Shown: positions 47,570 through 61,256 of the stretch, piece by piece
Position numbering within the stretch: the first letter of the stretch is position 1
Layout of the letters: the number at the start of each line of letters is the position of its first letter
Notes under the pieces: model-generated
Databases searched by the model: none
What the model saw: the letters and a program-made list of their open reading frames with translations, nothing else
What the model was told of the DNA's origin: nothing
Sequence record: OY726582
Length of the DNA: 64,000 bases
Source of the DNA: Escherichia phage vB_Eco_NicPhage
Reading direction: 5' to 3' (one strand)
Program-made: the position numbers and the translations under genes

Positions 47570-47818
47570 TTATTTAAGGGTAATAACAAAATGACGTACT
47601 GCTTTACGAGCTGCAGAAGCCAAAGGCTTAGCATATTTCAGTTCATCTTTTGCTTCCAGTTCAGAGGCCAAAGCTGCCTGTACCGGGTTCAGATGTTTGA
47701 AATAATGCAGGATTTCCAGTGCTTCGGCTTCAACATCAATCGACGCGCCGTAGTTTTCGTGACCGTTATTCCATGCGTTTCGTTGCAGTTCAAGAGCGTG
47801 TTGTAATTGTTTAATCAT
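47570..47818 (-). CDS. rIII: rIII lysis-inhibition accessory protein
   Basis: 82 aa, identical to T4 RIII length, immediately downstream of gene 31 as in T4. Confidence 0.75.
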   Translation of the reverse strand: MIKQLQHALELQRNAWNNGHENYGASIDVEAEALEILHYFKHLNPVQAALASELEAKDELKYAKPLASAARKAVRHFVITLK

Positions 47819-47923
47819 TTTAAATTCTCAATTCGAGATAATATTTAGTAGCCACGTTCGTCTGAATTTCACCTTCTTTCGACAAGTCTCTCAGTTGTAG
47901 GCTACCGCTTAGAAGAGTGTTCT

Positions 47924-47931
47924 CTTCATAT
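47924..47931 (-). promoter_or_regulatory. Minus-strand late promoter TATAAATA between gene 31 and rIII
   Basis: Reverse complement of plus-strand tatttata in the gp31-rIII intergenic region. Confidence 0.4.
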
Positions 47932-47942
47932 AGTTATTTATA

Positions 47943-48275
47943 TCACTTATAAAGACACGGAATAGCTTTATAGTGGCATGTTACGAATTTCTGTTTAATT
48001 TCTTTAGGTTGTTTAAGTCCCAAAGCCACAAATGGATGTGGAACATTTCGAATTTGTCCAACTGGTAGTGGAGTCAAATCACCGACTTCAACAAAACCTT
48101 CAGGAACATCAGGACCTACAGAATGAACTACACATAGTTCAGGAACTTCACCTTGAACACGTTTACCAATCACAAGTCCTGATTCGGTAACTTCTTCATC
48201 ACCTGCTTGAGCGGGTTCAGAAACCAGAATGACATATTCACCAACAGCACGAATTGGGAGTTGTACTTCAGACAT
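47943..48275 (-). CDS. 31: Co-chaperonin gp31 (GroES functional analogue)
   Basis: 110 aa (T4 111); near-identical to remembered T4 gp31 ([34 protein letters not shown]...). Confidence 0.9.
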
Positions 48276-48332
48276 CTTATTTCCTTGTTGTTTGACGATA
48301 GATTAATAATACCATACTATTCGTAAAGCATA

Positions 48333-48641
48333 TTACATAAGAAGCAAACGTTCTACCGGAGTACCATCAACCGAAATTACTTTATCAAGGCGGAAAGAAC
48401 GCCACTGACCTAACTTGGTATCGAATGCTCGAACTGATTCACGAGGTTCAGAACGAACTTCTGATGCCGGATTGTTATTTTCATATTTGACTTCAAGTTC
48501 ATCGCGAGAAGCAAACATAGTGCGTACCTCACCGTTAGCCTTTTCAAATACAACACAATGAACGCCTACAGACAGAATAGTTTTAATACGTTCACGAAGA
48601 ACCATAGTTTCTTGTTCAGTTAAAATCATATTATTCACCAC
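48333..48641 (-). CDS. Hypothetical protein (102 aa), 31.1-position
   Basis: ORF between cd and gene 31, overlapping the cd stop region. Confidence 0.5.
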   Translation of the reverse strand: MVNNMILTEQETMVLRERIKTILSVGVHCVVFEKANGEVRTMFASRDELEVKYENNNPASEVRSEPRESVRAFDTKLGQWRSFRLDKVISVDGTPVERLLLM

Positions 48642-49212
48642 AAAAGTTTCGGATTTGTTCCCAATTCAGAGAACGAAGATTATTACGAGAGTACTGAATT
48701 ACTTCAATACCGGCTTGTTTTAGAATGTCTGCCCAATTTTCAGGAGATCGGTCGTATAATTCTGCATATACAACCTTTTTAATACCTGACTGTGTAATAG
48801 CTTTAGTGCAATCAGGACACGGAGAAAGCGTCGTATATAACGTAGCACCTTCAATAGAATTACCTTTACGAGCTGCAAATAAAATTGCATTCAGTTCAGC
48901 ATGGATTTCATTATTAGCAGACCATGCACTATGAGCGGCCCGATGTTCTTTAGCCAAAACAAAATTATCCACCCGTCCAAATGCTGTAGTGCCTTCTTTA
49001 TGCCCAGCAACGATGACCGGGCTTGGTTTATTCTTCAACCAACCGTTTTCGGATGCATGTTCGCAACAGTTTGTACCACCTGAAGGAGAGCCATTATAAC
49101 CTGTAGAAATAATGCGTCCATCTTTTTCAATGACGGCACCAACTTTCCATGAACAACATTTTGATTCTTGAGAAATCAAATAAGCAATTTGAAGATATGT
49201 GCTAGCTTTCAT
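48631..49212 (-). CDS. cd: dCMP deaminase
   Basis: 193 aa, identical to T4 Cd length; zinc-binding motifs HAELNAI and PCPDC; N-terminus MKASTYLQIAYLISQESKCCSWKVGAVIEK. Confidence 0.9.
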   Translation of the reverse strand: MKASTYLQIAYLISQESKCCSWKVGAVIEKDGRIISTGYNGSPSGGTNCCEHASENGWLKNKPSPVIVAGHKEGTTAFGRVDNFVLAKEHRAAHSAWSANNEIHAELNAILFAARKGNSIEGATLYTTLSPCPDCTKAITQSGIKKVVYAELYDRSPENWADILKQAGIEVIQYSRNNLRSLNWEQIRNFCGE

Positions 49213-50204
49213 TATTGAACCTTATTAATATAAGTTAACAGCTCTTTAGTTTGTTCCCAACTGATGCACGCATCGGTAACGGAAACGCCATAGGACATAT
49301 TATCAGAAATTTTTTGATTTCCTTCATGTAGGAATGATTCTATCATAATTCCTTTGACCAAATCATTAGCTGCTAAATTTTTACCAATACCAATTTGATT
49401 GCTATAATGCCCAGCAGCGTTTGCATGGCTACAGTCAACCATTACATAATGATTCAGACCTACTGCACTTGCTTTGTTAGAAGCTTCTTGAATATCAGAA
49501 GAATGATAGTTCGGGCCGTTGGTCCCGCCACGCAATACGATATGCGTATTCTGATTACCTTCAGCTTCAACAATGCCTACAGTACCATCGACGTCCATAC
49601 CCATATACCGATGAGGCCTGGCGGCACTATACATCGCGTCTGTAGCTACTTTAATAGAACCATTGGTTGCGTTCTTGAAGCCTACGCACATCGGTAGACC
49701 TGAAGCAATTTCACGATGTGTCTGACTTTCAGTCGTACGGGCGCCAATAGCAACCCATGAGAAAATACCAGAAAGATACTTAATCGTGAATGGGTCTAAT
49801 ACTTCAGTTGCTAATGGAAGTCCCATACGTAGAAGTTTACGACACAATGTTCGTGCAACTATAAGACCGTGGTTCATATCAAAACTTCCGTCAAGATATG
49901 GATCATTTACAAGACCTTTCCAACCTACGGTAGTTCGAGGCTTTTCAAAATAAACGCGCATCACTAACAGAACATTAGGAAGACGAGTTTGAAGTTCAGC
50001 TAGACGTTTGCCGTATTCAACAGCAGCAATAGGGTCATGAATTGAACAAGGACCTACAACAATAAGTTTGCGTGGGTCTTCACCGTTCATAATCGAATTA
50101 ACTTGTTCGCGATGAGAAGCCACTTGTGATGCGTAAGCTTCCGACAAAGGAATAATCTCAGCCAGTTCTTTTGGAGAAATAAGTTTTCTGACGACAGGTA
50201 ACAT
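49212..50204 (-). CDS. 3-deoxy-D-arabino-heptulosonate-7-phosphate (DAHP) synthase, class I-alpha (AroF/AroG-like)
   Basis: 330 aa; full-length colinearity with E. coli AroF/AroG, including KLIVVGPCSIHD, VMRVYFEKPRTTVGWKGL, IGARTTESQTHRE, GFKN, ILRGG, VDCSHAN, ESFLHEGNQ, VTDACISWE; AAGGA Shine-Dalgarno 6 nt upstream; stop overlaps cd start (TAATG). Confidence 0.9.
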   Translation of the reverse strand: MLPVVRKLISPKELAEIIPLSEAYASQVASHREQVNSIMNGEDPRKLIVVGPCSIHDPIAAVEYGKRLAELQTRLPNVLLVMRVYFEKPRTTVGWKGLVNDPYLDGSFDMNHGLIVARTLCRKLLRMGLPLATEVLDPFTIKYLSGIFSWVAIGARTTESQTHREIASGLPMCVGFKNATNGSIKVATDAMYSAARPHRYMGMDVDGTVGIVEAEGNQNTHIVLRGGTNGPNYHSSDIQEASNKASAVGLNHYVMVDCSHANAAGHYSNQIGIGKNLAANDLVKGIMIESFLHEGNQKISDNMSYGVSVTDACISWEQTKELLTYINKVQ

Positions 50205-50324
50205 AACAATCCTTAGGAGATATAAACAGATTCTGATTCAACAATACCTTTAACCGGATTAGACAGGCTAAGTTGGTAGTGCTCAGATTTATGACCATTC
50301 TCGATAGTAATGAGATAGCTCTCA

Positions 50325-50561
50325 TTATAGTGTTCCATATACTCGAGTTGCTTCAACAAGACCATCACTGCCTAATTTAAGATTAGTAATTTGGTCACCA
50401 TCTTTAGGATTAACGATTATGAGAAAAGAACGTGGAGATTCTTGAATAACTCGTAATGTTGCATCTTGGAAACGTTCAGACACTTTATTGATGAGTGCTT
50501 GAGCAAATTCTTTTACTTTAATCTGAAATTCGTGTACTGTAATTGGGTTTTCACTTAGCAT
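50325..50561 (-). CDS. Hypothetical protein (78 aa)
   Basis: ORF with upstream TTTACA-N17-TACTAT element (50590-50618). Confidence 0.45.
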   Translation of the reverse strand: MLSENPITVHEFQIKVKEFAQALINKVSERFQDATLRVIQESPRSFLIIVNPKDGDQITNLKLGSDGLVEATRVYGTL

Positions 50562-50589
50562 TTCTATTTCCTCATTTGTTGGTAGAGTT

Positions 50590-50618
50590 ATAGTATCACA
50601 ACTCCACCACGTTGTAAA
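50590..50618 (-). promoter_or_regulatory. Early promoter TTTACA-N17-TACTAT for ORF 50325..50561
   Basis: Minus strand reads ggTTTACAacgtggtggagttgtgaTACTATaac. Confidence 0.5.
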
Positions 50619-50621
50619 CCA

Positions 50622-50897
50622 TTAAATTGCTTTGCATTCAATTTTTTGTGTACCGAAATTGATATCACATTGGATAACTAAATCGCCGTCAAGATCAAAT
50701 ACCACGATGACGTGTGCAGACCCAGGGAGAAGAGTAATAGCAATAGAATCTACTTGGTCTGGGAGCAAAGCATTGAGTACATGAGTTACTTGAGCATGAA
50801 CTCTGAGTTCGGCTGCATTATCAAGCACTTCAAACATATTATTAGCAATAATCTGACTGAAGACTACCTTTACAATTTCAGAATAAGTTGGGAACAT
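50622..50897 (-). CDS. Hypothetical protein (91 aa)
   Basis: ORF in minus-strand early cluster between pseT and the DAHP synthase gene. Confidence 0.45.
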   Translation of the reverse strand: MFPTYSEIVKVVFSQIIANNMFEVLDNAAELRVHAQVTHVLNALLPDQVDSIAITLLPGSAHVIVVFDLDGDLVIQCDINFGTQKIECKAI

Positions 50898-50904
50898 AAT
50901 TACC

Positions 50905-51129
50905 TCAGTGCACAGTATTTACTTTAACTCGAACAACAAATCGCTCGGTTGGATCACCTACAGGAACAAACTCTACATGATATTCACCTTTGTAACGAGT
51001 ATTCAGATCATTACGAATTCCTGCGAGTTTGTTGATTAATGTAGGACTCATATTAAGTCCCACTAGTTTACGAAGCATTTTGTATGCTTCATCTTCGATT
51101 TCATGATGTTTATCGTACATAGTTTTCAT
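50905..51129 (-). CDS. Hypothetical protein (74 aa)
   Basis: ORF in minus-strand early cluster. Confidence 0.45.
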   Translation of the reverse strand: MKTMYDKHHEIEDEAYKMLRKLVGLNMSPTLINKLAGIRNDLNTRYKGEYHVEFVPVGDPTERFVVRVKVNTVH

Positions 51130-51301
51130 TTAACCATTCAATTGCCTGGTCGACGTTATCAAATATCCCGCCGTCCAAACGTTCTTCATGCTCATAGTCC
51201 AGCACATCAATACCGAACTGTCCATTTACTAAAGGCCAGGCAACAAACAAATATTCTTTATGCTGTTCGATGGCCTCAATCACTTCATATAATCGTTTCA
51301 T
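51110..51301 (-). CDS. Hypothetical protein (63 aa)
   Basis: ORF immediately downstream of pseT, abutting its stop. Confidence 0.4.
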   Translation of the reverse strand: MKRLYEVIEAIEQHKEYLFVAWPLVNGQFGIDVLDYEHEERLDGGIFDNVDQAIEWLNENYVR

Positions 51302-52388
<1,087 letters not shown>

Positions 52389-52389
<1 letters not shown>

Positions 52390-52688
52390 TATTTTATTCC
52401 TAAGAAAATTTCAAGAATACGAATGTTATGCTCGCGCCGGTCTTTATTAATTTCAGCAACGTTTTTATTAATTGACGTACTTCTAACGTTTGAAGAAATA
52501 AATTTAATCATATGACTTTTGAGTTGTTGCAAATCCAACCCTTTTTCTTTAGCAGCTTTACGAAGAGCTTTACCTGCTTCATCTAGTGCCTTTGCTGCAT
52601 CTTTGTCATAATTGCCAAGTGACATTCCACGACAGATATCAATATACTCATCAGACCGTTTGATGTAATTCTCTAGTAATGTTTTCAT
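52389..52688 (-). CDS. Hypothetical protein (99 aa)
   Basis: ORF with upstream TTTACA-N17-TATAAT element (52717-52745). Confidence 0.45.
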
Positions 52689-52716
52689 TTAGATTTCCTC
52701 AATTATCCATAGGAGC

Positions 52717-52745
52717 ATTATACTCTGCTCCTGAGAGTTTGTAAA
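52717..52745 (-). promoter_or_regulatory. Early promoter TTTACA-N17-TATAAT for ORF 52389..52688
   Basis: Minus strand reads agTTTACAaactctcaggagcagagTATAATg. Confidence 0.5.
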
Positions 52746-52970
52746 CTATTTTACTAAAGATTCAATATACTCGTGAAGAGCTTTAGTCGCTACTGCCCAC
52801 TTATTCTGATATTCATTTTTCAGATTAGCACGAGACTGAACTAACAATCGGTCATTAGTCGGAGGCAAAGATTCTAATCGTTGAATCTGGCGCCCATAAA
52901 TCATAGCCGCCATTTCAGATTCATAGATAAGCCCTTTAATGTATTCATGCTGTTCTTTAGTCATTGGCAT
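52746..52970 (-). CDS. Hypothetical protein (74 aa)
   Basis: ORF overlapping the lipoprotein gene stop. Confidence 0.4.
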   Translation of the reverse strand: MPMTKEQHEYIKGLIYESEMAAMIYGRQIQRLESLPPTNDRLLVQSRANLKNEYQNKWAVATKALHEYIESLVK

Positions 52971-53251
52971 TTTTCCTCTTTTAAACCACTACGATAATAA
53001 CATAACATAGTCTTCTGGTCATGTATATATCTTTTTACGTCGTTTAACCAGATACGAAATTCTTGAGAGTCTTCAAATGGCATTCCAACCCACGGATTAC
53101 CATCAATAACCTTTACTTGCCATTTCTGGTTGTATTCGGAAATAGGCGTAGGCCATGAAGGATGTAAAGTTTCTTTAGGGCTTACTGGCACATCCTGAGT
53201 ACATCCAACTAGGAGACCAATAGATAATACAGCCACAGTTAATTTAATCAT
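52961..53251 (-). CDS. Outer-membrane lipoprotein, candidate o-spanin (Rz1-like)
   Basis: N-terminal signal peptide with lipobox LLVGC (MIKLTVAVLSIGLLVGCTQ); 96 aa; immediately downstream of and overlapping a membrane/coiled-coil protein gene; T4 spanins map to the pseT.2/pseT.3 position. Confidence 0.6.
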   Translation of the reverse strand: MIKLTVAVLSIGLLVGCTQDVPVSPKETLHPSWPTPISEYNQKWQVKVIDGNPWVGMPFEDSQEFRIWLNDVKRYIHDQKTMLCYYRSGLKEEKCQ

Positions 53252-59811: not shown

Positions 59812-60672
59812 TTATACCGCCATTTTAGCTTTGATAGTTGGATGAGATTCGTAATTTTTAAGAACGAAATCAGAATGTGTCATCGTTCCAGTAACCCAGT
59901 CCATTTGGATTTTTGTAGGCCAATTCTCAAAATTACTAGGCCAATTAATTTCAAGAGAACATAACTCTTTAGGTTCACGACGAAGAACTTCTTTGCATTG
60001 TTCTACATGATTGCTGTAGATATGCGTGTTGCCGCCTGAGAACACTAAATCACCTGGGATAAGGTTACACATCTTCGCTACAATATGCGTCAAGGCAGCG
60101 TACGAGGCAATGTTGAACGGCAGGCCCAAGAAAACATCTACACTGCGTTGATACCATTGTAAATCAAGATGCCCATTACGCACATTAAATTGATAGAACA
60201 TATGACAAGGAGGAAGAGCCATTTGGTCAATTTCGGCTGGGTTCCATGCAGAAACTATTTGACGACGATCATTAGGAAGAGCTTTAATACGGTCGATAGT
60301 TTTGACCAATTGGTCTACACCACCAAAATCACGCCATTGCTTACCATAAATAGGACCAAGTTCGCCGCTATGATATCCAAGGTCTTTTGCCTGATTTTCA
60401 TAGTTGTCGTCCCAAATAGTTTTACCTTGAATAAGACTACCATGAGTACGAATACGCAAATCATTAACATTGGTAGAACCAGACATGAACCACAGTAACT
60501 CGGCAATACAAGCTTTCCATGCTAATTTCTTAGTTGTTACCGCAGGGAATCCTTTAGTCAGATCCCAACGTAATTTAGTTCCGAACAGGGCAATAGTGCC
60601 GGTACCTGTACGGTCGTCTGTTTCGTAGCCATTTTCTAGGATATCATTAATCAGGTATTGGTATTGTTTCAT
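59812..60672 (-). CDS. td: Thymidylate synthase, uninterrupted (no intron)
   Basis: 286 aa contiguous, identical to T4 Td mature length; active-site region LPPCH and conserved TS core visible. Confidence 0.95.
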   Translation of the reverse strand: MKQYQYLINDILENGYETDDRTGTGTIALFGTKLRWDLTKGFPAVTTKKLAWKACIAELLWFMSGSTNVNDLRIRTHGSLIQGKTIWDDNYENQAKDLGYHSGELGPIYGKQWRDFGGVDQLVKTIDRIKALPNDRRQIVSAWNPAEIDQMALPPCHMFYQFNVRNGHLDLQWYQRSVDVFLGLPFNIASYAALTHIVAKMCNLIPGDLVFSGGNTHIYSNHVEQCKEVLRREPKELCSLEINWPSNFENWPTKIQMDWVTGTMTHSDFVLKNYESHPTIKAKMAV

Positions 60673-61256
60673 TTATAAACGCTCTCAGTAATTTCGGTGA
60701 GTTCATCGATTCTGTAGTAATGAGATTCTACCATAGAACGTTGAAGCATAATATCTTGGACGAAATCTTTATCAAGTTGAACATCGGAATTAACACGACA
60801 TTTCTTAATGATTTTAGTCATCACGATTTCATCGGCATAAGGCAGTGCTTGTTTAAGTAGAGCAGGACCGCCGATAACAGATACATTAACATGTTCAGTA
60901 GAAAGTTTAAACGGTACATCAGTTGCAGGGCTAAACAGGTTAATTTCACCACCTGTTACCAAGGTAATAAATTCAGATTGGGTGATATAGAACCGTGCAA
61001 GTTCATCAGTTTTAGTCCTAGGCAGTTTTCTGGCCATATCAGTGACAACCACATGAGTACGATCTGGGAGTAGACGAGGTAATGATGCAAAAGTCTTAGC
61101 ACCCATAACCATTACAGTGTTTTTAGTGCGAGCAACAAAGTTACTCATATCTTGTTTGATATGCTTCCATGGAAGTCCATCACCTAATCCAAAAGCATAT
61201 TCCAGTTTATCATCAACTGTTTTAGATGGTGCGCATGCGAATACTAATTTAAGCAT
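60669..61256 (-). CDS. frd: Dihydrofolate reductase
   Basis: 195 aa (T4 193); overlaps td start by 4 nt as in T4. Confidence 0.85.
   Translation of the reverse strand: MLKLVFACAPSKTVDDKLEYAFGLGDGLPWKHIKQDMSNFVARTKNTVMVMGAKTFASLPRLLPDRTHVVVTDMARKLPRTKTDELARFYITQSEFITLVTGGEINLFSPATDVPFKLSTEHVNVSVIGGPALLKQALPYADEIVMTKIIKKCRVNSDVQLDKDFVQDIMLQRSMVESHYYRIDELTEITESVYK

Follow-up and report, generated by a model that had tools for sequence, protein, structure and literature searches.

The window examined here, a 64,000-nucleotide stretch of the genome of Escherichia phage vB_Eco_NicPhage (sequence record OY726582), encodes on its minus strand, between cd (dCMP deaminase) and cd.2, a 330-residue protein of the class I-alpha family of 3-deoxy-D-arabinoheptulosonate 7-phosphate (DAHP) synthases (DAHPS; Table 1). 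DAHP synthases make DAHP from phosphoenolpyruvate (PEP) and erythrose-4-phosphate (E4P), the flux-controlling entry into the shikimate pathway, whose later enzymes are largely constitutive. The open reading frame (ORF) starts with ATG, and an in-frame extension to a longer start is impossible. It is preceded by an AAGGA ribosome-binding site, and its stop overlaps the start of cd in a TAATG junction, the last A of the DAHPS TAA being the first base of the cd ATG. The ORF, its start, the full-length match, the ribosome-binding site and the junction had all been put forward in a preliminary description, and all are borne out.

The gene itself is already catalogued and is no new discovery. A tblastn search found it in 212 phage records, many of them annotated as DAHP synthase, which answers the question, raised earlier, of whether homologues had been annotated. 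By identity, 139 of these records match at ≥95% (Mosigvirus-like phages of E. coli and Shigella), 47 at 60–80% and 26 at <60%, and the hosts include Enterobacter, Edwardsiella, Erwinia/Serratia, Klebsiella and Proteus. The window protein is 100% identical to the DAHPS of vB_EcoM_G2285 and PTE-Eco05. It matches phrog_5045 with 602.6 bits (residues 1–330 on profile positions 8–337 of 341), a family placed by PHROGs in the category 'moron, auxiliary metabolic gene and host takeover', and GenBank names such proteins of Mosigvirus and other Straboviridae 'phospho-2-dehydro-3-deoxyheptonate aldolase'; the window gene is this same gene, with no difference. The Mosigvirus gene was listed among suggested auxiliary metabolic genes (AMGs) of unknown function by Olsen et al. 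2020 (bioRxiv 10.1101/2020.01.19.911818), and a DAHPS domain is mentioned in passing in the phiC120 genome paper (PMC8022965). What is new here is the analysis of the regulatory site and of the history of the cassette that carries the gene.

Profiles, catalytic residues and fold agree in placing the protein in class I-alpha. In profile searches it scored 253.5 bits against Pfam DAHP_synth_1 (PF00793; cutoff 25.5), 428.8 bits against the NCBIfam aroFGH equivalog TIGR00034 (cutoff 173.2) and 457.1 bits against the AroF-type subfamily NF009395 (cutoff 343). Among the aroFGH models of NCBIfam, only the generic and the AroF-type ones pass their thresholds, as the AroG equivalog (365.6 bits; cutoff 568) and the AroH subfamily (385.6 bits; cutoff 463) both fall below. 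The closest solved relative is E. coli AroF (PDB 6agm, 4.8e-105), and identities to E. coli AroF, AroG and AroH are 51, 47 and 44%, respectively. The metal ligands C53, H260, E289 and D311 (AroG Cys61, His268, Glu302 and Asp326) and the PEP/E4P-binding residues R83, K88, P89, R90, T91, G154, A155, R156, K177 and R225 are invariant, the ligands both in the alignment with AroF, AroG and AroH and, like the substrate-binding residues, in all 25 sequence clusters of the phage homologues. An inspection for a lost metal ligand or PEP-binding residue thus found none, in keeping with the earlier description of a full-length, catalytically intact AroF-type enzyme. All but one of the motifs quoted in that description are present (GPCSIHD at residue 51, RVYFEKPRTT at 83, IGARTTESQTHRE at 153, GFKN at 175, VDCSHAN at 256, ESFLHEGNQ at 289 and VTDACISWE at 309); 'ILRGG' is absent, the actual sequence being VLRGG at residue 223. 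The KPR(T/S) motif for E4P is present, and KPRT as opposed to KANRS is the motif that discriminates DAHP synthases from 3-deoxy-D-manno-octulosonate 8-phosphate (KDO8P) synthases. An AlphaFold2 (AF2) model (pLDDT 94.4, pTM 0.92) has the (beta/alpha)8 barrel, the beta6a/6b hairpin (E198-203/E209-214) and N-terminal helices (H11-17 and H22-39), and Foldseek superposed it on the DAHP synthases of Neisseria meningitidis (4hso) and E. coli (1gg1) with a TM score of 0.96 and a root-mean-square deviation of 1.3 Å. Judged by this conservation, the ORF is predicted to encode an active, metal-dependent class I-alpha DAHP synthase of AroF ancestry.

The allosteric effector site departs sharply from the cellular pattern. 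In an alignment of the window protein with AroF, AroG, AroH and 119 database relatives, the phage proteins form one clade (200/200 neighbour-joining (NJ) bootstraps) of 25 clusters that are 56–99% identical and 319–343 residues long, drawn from at least six phage genera in which the gene occupies a syntenic slot. We scanned every column for residues fixed in this clade (≥24 of 25) that differ from a ≥90% consensus of 96 cellular sequences, setting aside two bacterial proteins, P0109 and P0110. Only six columns were returned: AroG P150>I, Q151>K, D155>G, S180>P, F209>Y and T223>A. A list of effector-pocket positions drawn up beforehand contains five of these columns (hypergeometric p = 7e-6), and the sixth, D155, is also part of the effector site. 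The phage residues I141, K142, P171 and Y200 occur in 24–25 of the 25 clade members, and cellular relatives keep P, Q, S and F at these positions in 89–96 of 98 sequences. The protein also begins at about AroG residue 9 (about 9–11 across the clade), so that the equivalents of AroG Asp6 and Asp7 are missing from all 25 members; one cluster, P0022, has a slightly longer, unrelated N terminus that reaches the position of Leu8, an equivalent of which is absent in the others. The N-terminal Asp/Asn pair, Pro150, Gln151, Ser180 and Phe209 that make up the canonical effector site are therefore all lacking. A shortened N terminus had been noticed before; the loss is real and amounts to 8–9 residues, at the low end of the 8–20 then claimed. 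Within the phage clade, the pocket columns vary less than the remainder of the protein (mean entropy 0.39 versus 1.06, p = 2.5e-4), which argues that the altered pocket is maintained by selection and is not decaying. An exhaustive scan of 1.84 billion proteins was used to look for a cellular lineage with the six-residue signature; it was absent from all 150 of the best representatives, among which the top partial match shared two of six residues.

If the enzyme were an ordinary Tyr-sensitive AroF-like isozyme, it would simply add dosage, active only when phage protein synthesis brings aromatic amino acids to low levels. Its top matches are AroF and the AroF-type subfamily model, its residue at the Tyr/Phe specificity position (AroG S211) is Gly, the residue found in AroF, and the ORFs of the window encode 4.1% Tyr, above the roughly 2.8% of E. 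coli proteins. We nevertheless consider this quite unlikely, because the Gln and Ser that hold the main chain of the effector and the N-terminal Asp/Asn contacts are gone in every clade member, and single changes at these places abolish inhibition in AroG and AroF (PMC9529685, PMC6520568). Specifically, Q151/Q152 and S180/S181 hold the main chain of bound Phe or Tyr, D155 of AroG is a salt-bridge residue that stabilizes the effector site, and AroG P150L and S180F as well as F209A/S are feedback resistant (PMC9529685); in 1KFL, Asp6 and Asp7 belong to the site that binds Phe, and enzymes in which they are replaced, such as D6G-D7A, combine high resistance with activity (PMC6520568). Because the residues changed in the phage clade are known feedback-resistance positions, the phage DAHPS is likely to be a naturally deregulated enzyme that has lost feedback inhibition. 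The feedback insensitivity suggested in the preliminary description is thus probable, on the strength of the lost N-terminal contacts and the clade-wide replacement of five pocket residues and Asp155.

Natural deregulation is the most economical reading of the site, and its main alternative is that the pocket has been repurposed, the Ile-Lys/Gly/Pro/Tyr/Ala set binding a different small molecule, such as a nucleotide or some other anionic metabolite of the phage era drawn by the new Lys, so that entry into the shikimate pathway would follow a signal relevant to the phage. The elevated conservation of the pocket columns, the single fixed set of substitutions in place of scattered losses, and the retention of the beta6a/6b regulatory hairpin all fit such a ligand. 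Yet the N-terminal lid, by which the neighbouring subunit completes the site, has been deleted and what is left of the N terminus varies, and structural or dimer-interface roles of the pocket segments could account for the conservation. We rate a repurposed pocket as unlikely, while taking it seriously.

Several observations bear on where the phage clade came from. The third-position GC content (GC3) of the DAHPS gene is 0.29, compared with 0.15–0.35 in the neighbouring genes and 0.50–0.57 in E. coli aroF, aroG and aroH; its codon log-likelihood under window usage is −0.98, compared with −0.96 ± 0.09 for the other window ORFs and −1.24 to −1.35 for the E. coli genes. The codon usage is thus phage-like, as first described, and together with the 51% identity to AroF and the deep monophyly of the phage clade it rules out a recent capture from an E. 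coli host. P0109 and P0110, the nearest sequences in the NJ tree, were rejected both as donors and as phage genes, given that P0110 lies in a bacterial uvrC/pgsA context and has a full N terminus and a different pocket; their placement in the tree is probably due to long-branch attraction. They represent a bacterial lineage with a full-length DAHP synthase in a uvrY-like/uvrC/pgsA neighbourhood (locus L011, 6001–7083) and a non-canonical pocket of its own (D146>Q, P150>A, Q151>G, S180>P and F209>H), and may be a differently regulated cellular isozyme. Two further top representatives of the protein scan, P0121 (799 residues) and P0122 (730 residues), each contain two DAHP-synthase-like stretches and are therefore tandem or fused DAHP synthases. 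The DAHP synthase family is related to KDO8P synthases, which use arabinose-5-phosphate. A link to the arabinosyl-hydroxymethylcytosine (hmC) DNA modification of Mosigvirus was also considered and rejected, as RB69, whose DNA we take to carry arabinosyl-hmC, is without the gene, and the phage protein has the DAHP-type KPRTT.

The ratio of nonsynonymous to synonymous substitution rates (dN/dS) of the gene is 0.15–0.30, and the gene is under purifying selection. The absence of the gene from RB69, T2 and about ten close relatives would fit a neutral passenger, or a gene in decay that plays no part in infection, but such a reading is hardly credible: no catalytic residue varies in the 25 clusters, whose identity falls as low as 56%, several genera have the gene in a syntenic slot, its codon usage is ameliorated, its dN/dS is below 1, and 139 records retain it.

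Comparison with RB69, the type Mosigvirus, delimits the mobile unit. The two sequences share 96.6% identity as far as position 49215 and 97.2% beyond the gap, which ends at 50309, and the 1,094 bp between are in the window alone; in RB69, cd.2 directly adjoins cd, with no DAHPS. Besides the DAHPS gene, this cassette holds the 3' half of a foreign cd.2, next to the full-length resident cd.2. The remnant scores twice as high against the cd.2 of the DAHPS-carrying Edwardsiella phage PEi26 (63) and Klebsiella phage PhiKpNIH-6 (62), both of other genera, as against the resident cd.2 (31). It lies within a 51-residue ORF (50213..50368, minus strand), residues 15–50 of which are the C-terminal fragment of the second, foreign cd.2; this ORF is no independent gene family, and PHROGs keeps it as a family of its own, phrog_15876 (41 positions). 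An imperfect direct repeat flanks the cassette (junctions A and B; Table 1), and the RB69 junction combines the left side of A with the right side of B.

The cassette is also far less diverged than its surroundings. In three Mosigvirus genomes it is 99.1–100% identical, whereas cd differs by 2.2–4.3%, cd.3 by up to 30% and pseT by 6–16% (Fisher p ≤ 1e-12 for cassette versus flanks), and synonymous divergence is 0.018–0.027 for DAHPS versus 0.10–0.18 for cd, the RB69 rows for cd, extracted at wrong coordinates, being disregarded. The site is occupied in 139 of about 150 Mosigvirus-like records and empty in about 11 close ones (RB69, JK42, JK36, moha, ECO111 5-P and the vB_Eco_mar005P1 records). 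Kanagawavirus and Klebsiella phages likewise carry the gene between cd.2 and cd, and two small ORFs intervene in Bragavirus. Such gene traffic gathers in the hyperplastic regions of T4-like genomes (PMC4122927). Taken together, the cassette structure, the foreign cd.2 remnant, the low divergence and the empty sites indicate an accessory cassette that would have come from another T4-like lineage, entering through one illegitimate and one homologous crossover, and then spread recently through Mosigvirus. Alternatively, RB69-like phages may have lost it by a precise deletion across the repeat that flanks it.

Table 1. Features of the DAHPS locus in the window (all on the minus strand).
Feature	Position	Strand	Basis
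DAHPS coding sequence (330 aa, class I-alpha, AroF-type)	49212..50204	-	profiles, AroF match, AF2 model
AAGGA ribosome-binding site, 5 nt before the DAHPS ATG	50210..50214	-	CTCCTAAGGATTGTTATG
I141-K142 codons (AroG P150, Q151), effector main-chain contact	49779..49784	-	alignment; PMC9529685
G146 codon (AroG D155), site-stabilizing aspartate lost	49767..49769	-	column scan; PMC9529685
P171 codon (AroG S180), effector main-chain contact	49692..49694	-	alignment; PMC9529685
Y200 codon (AroG F209)	49605..49607	-	alignment; PMC9529685
A214 codon (AroG T223)	49563..49565	-	alignment
Cassette, 1,094 bp (DAHPS gene and foreign cd.2 fragment)	49216..50309	-	RB69 comparison, empty-site genomes
Foreign cd.2 3'-half remnant (DUF7320 profile positions 43–76)	50219..50326	-	within 51-aa ORF
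Junction A, upstream copy of imperfect direct repeat, AATGAGAGCTATCTCA	50309..50330	-	repeat comparison
Junction B, downstream repeat copy, AATGAAAGCTAGCACA, the start of cd	49196..49217	-	repeat comparison
TAATG junction, DAHPS stop overlapping cd start	49210..49214	-	sequence
cd (dCMP deaminase), neighbour downstream, probably translationally coupled	48631..49212	-	ORF and profile search
Full-length resident cd.2 (DUF7320)	50325..50561	-	profile search
Promoter candidate of sigma-70 type upstream of cd.2 (TTTACA-17-TACTAT with TG)	50590..50618	-	weak evidence

Mosaicism among Mosigvirus genomes is strong over the 4.4 kb around the cassette (47900–52300, compared with p000v (L013) and AV109 (L014)). 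Here gp31 is 100% identical, cd.3 about 70% (window versus p000v and AV109) and pseT 84–94%, and these unequal identities of adjoining genes point to very different histories. The cd gene of RB69 (L005, 7743–8252) is annotated with 510 nt (169 residues), compared with 582 nt (193 residues) in the window, JK45, p000v, AV109 and T2, and a 582-nt extraction from RB69 is without a terminal stop codon; either the 3' end or the annotation of RB69 cd differs, or there is a frameshift. The vB_Eco_mar005P1 records LR027383–LR027391 have an empty cd.2/cd site, whereas OZ035759, named 'Mosigvirus mar005p1', carries the cassette at 99.4% identity, a discrepancy that could reflect a polymorphic stock or records from different phages.

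In the window, structural genes run on the plus strand to about 39 kb and are followed by minus-strand early genes (alt, ligase, cd, pseT, rnlA, nrdB, nrdA, td, frd and gp32). The sigma-70-type candidate listed in Table 1 is the promoter-like site nearest upstream of the DAHPS gene. We looked for a promoter or terminator private to the cassette and found none, and no minus-strand terminator was found in 47800–53000. The DAHPS gene is probably co-transcribed with the surrounding pre-late genes, and its translation is probably coupled to that of cd. MotA-box-like patterns (TGCTT N13-15 TANNNT) occur 22 times in the window, mostly on the minus strand, against 11.3 ± 3.0 expected, an enrichment consistent with T4-type middle promoters; a good example lies at 48306–48330 (minus strand), upstream of gene 31. 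Despite this enrichment, no convincing MotA-box-like site was found directly upstream of the DAHPS gene. ARAGORN found no tRNA genes in the 64 kb.

The preliminary description placed the gene in a nucleotide-metabolism operon, and this argument is not supported. The folate-linked genes td (59812–60672) and frd (60669–61256) are on the same strand, 9.6–11 kb upstream of the DAHPS gene, and next to the DAHPS gene lie small cd.x ORFs, gp31, rIII and pseT, unrelated genes in an interval known to be hypervariable. A mobile 1.1-kb cassette brought the gene in, and RB69 and T2 keep cd, td and frd without it. A comparison of the cd–pseT interval across T4-like genomes, as had been suggested, found the DAHPS slot to be variable: it is empty in RB69, and in T2, in which the interval holds cd.1, cd.2, cd.3 and cd.5, it is cd.1 that sits between cd and cd.2. 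We regard the locus as a variable region, not a functional operon.

These facts also weigh on the idea that the purpose of the enzyme is to supply chorismate-derived para-aminobenzoate (pABA) and folate for phage dTMP and hydroxymethyl-dCMP synthesis. Its logic is that a deregulated entry enzyme would be most useful when aromatic amino acids are plentiful. Under such conditions, the Phe, Tyr and Trp branches are closed by feedback and surplus chorismate passes into the branches for pABA, quinones and siderophores, so pathway regulation suggests that a feedback-blind entry enzyme would favour some product other than an amino acid. That cd adjoins the DAHPS gene and that td and frd share its strand would fit a folate role. 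Set against this are the distance to td and frd, the hypervariable slot with its unrelated genes, the arrival of the gene on a mobile cassette, the catalytic use of folate and its recycling by phage Frd, and the fact that RB69 and T4 make modified DNA without a DAHPS gene; we regard folate supply as an unlikely purpose, although one worth keeping in view.

We return to natural deregulation, and give rather better than even chances to a model in which the phage makes an active, AroF-derived DAHP synthase with a dismantled allosteric off-switch that raises chorismate supply during infection. The deleted N-terminal segment is one that would normally close over the bound amino acid, and the main-chain holders (Gln and Ser) and pocket shapers (Pro, Phe, Thr and Asp) would have given way to the fixed set Ile, Lys, Gly, Pro, Tyr and Ala. 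DAHP synthase activity would then persist regardless of the Tyr, Phe and Trp pools. A host whose transcription has been shut off would be unable to derepress aroF, aroG and aroH, which is why a feedback-independent DAHPS would matter, and the phage enzyme would supply the activity instead. Because the entry step is flux-controlling and the later enzymes are largely constitutive, this one gene would raise the flux into chorismate, with aromatic amino acids, folate, quinones and siderophore as candidate products. A deregulated enzyme and the nucleotide demand of a T4-like phage are also compatible with a substrate sink, in which draining E4P and PEP would pull the non-oxidative pentose-phosphate reactions towards pentose phosphates for nucleotides. 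Nothing points to such a sink directly, PEP and carbon would be wasted, and no partner gene was seen; as pure inference, we consider it very unlikely.

Several points weigh against the model of a deregulated enzyme that benefits the phage. RB69, T2 and T4 grow without the gene, so any benefit would be conditional. The timing of expression is derived from T4 gene order, and sigma-70-like sites occur in the region at chance frequency. Non-canonical pockets are common among distant cellular DAHP synthases, and the high conservation of the altered pocket would also fit the binding of a different effector. Equivalent single changes in Corynebacterium glutamicum AroF (Q159A and S188F) lower activity or stability in the literature, and the searchable literature yielded nothing on the function or biochemistry of a phage DAHP synthase beyond mentions in passing.

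In broader terms, we put only just above even the proposition that the Straboviridae DAHPS is a clade-wide natural redesign of the class I-alpha allosteric site, either feedback-blind or a sensor of a new ligand, carried on a 1.1-kb cassette that has moved between T4-like genera and recently swept through Mosigvirus. AMGs for amino-acid and cofactor biosynthesis are well documented in marine phages and hardly studied in classical coliphages. The present case is one gene, simple to assay, that bears on the step controlling flux through the shikimate pathway; most sequenced Mosigvirus isolates have it, as do relatives that infect Klebsiella, Enterobacter, Proteus, Serratia and Edwardsiella. Natural pairs with the cassette and with an empty site (JK45 versus JK42/JK36 and RB69) make the question of fitness directly testable. 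Many DAHPS-carrying phages are candidates for therapy, for which a rewiring of host aromatic, folate and siderophore precursors would be relevant. Beyond the catalogue entry, the value added is a specific, testable claim: that the allosteric site has been rewired throughout the clade, in an enzyme whose gene travels on a cassette that has been spreading recently.

Compared with known enzymes, the phage DAHPS shares with E. coli AroF (6agm/6agl) 51% identity over the full length, the metal ligands, KPRTT, the PEP residues, the (beta/alpha)8 barrel, the beta6a/6b hairpin and Gly at the Tyr/Phe specificity position. It differs from AroF in lacking about the first nine residues, including AroF Asn7/Asn8 (aligned with AroG Asp6/Asp7), in the replacements P151>I, Q152>K, D156>G, S181>P, F210>Y and T224>A, in internal deletions of five and three residues, in a shorter C terminus and in its phage-like codon usage. 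The unrelated 79-kb Aeromonas phage HJ05 (L010, 4899–6062) encodes another class I-alpha DAHPS with intact catalytic residues, annotated as 'hypothetical', whose pocket is also non-canonical (Q151>H, S180>P and F209>V). At 38% identity and 388 residues, with the N-terminal Asp/Asn pair kept, it falls outside the Straboviridae clade and its alignment is less certain; it may represent a convergent loss of canonical regulation in phage-borne copies. A parallel to the pocket itself comes from the engineered feedback-resistant (fbr) enzymes aroG-fbr and aroF-fbr (AroG P150L, S180F and D6G-D7A; C. glutamicum AroF Q159A and S188F), which are altered at the same positions as the phage protein, in which several are changed at once (PMC9529685, PMC6520568). 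The phage version is natural, is fixed clade-wide, uses Ile, Lys and Pro instead of Leu, Ala and Phe, and has a resistance that is predicted. If it is feedback-blind, these phages would have reached the single-gene solution of the metabolic engineers, and would offer a naturally optimized, multi-site template for feedback-resistant design.

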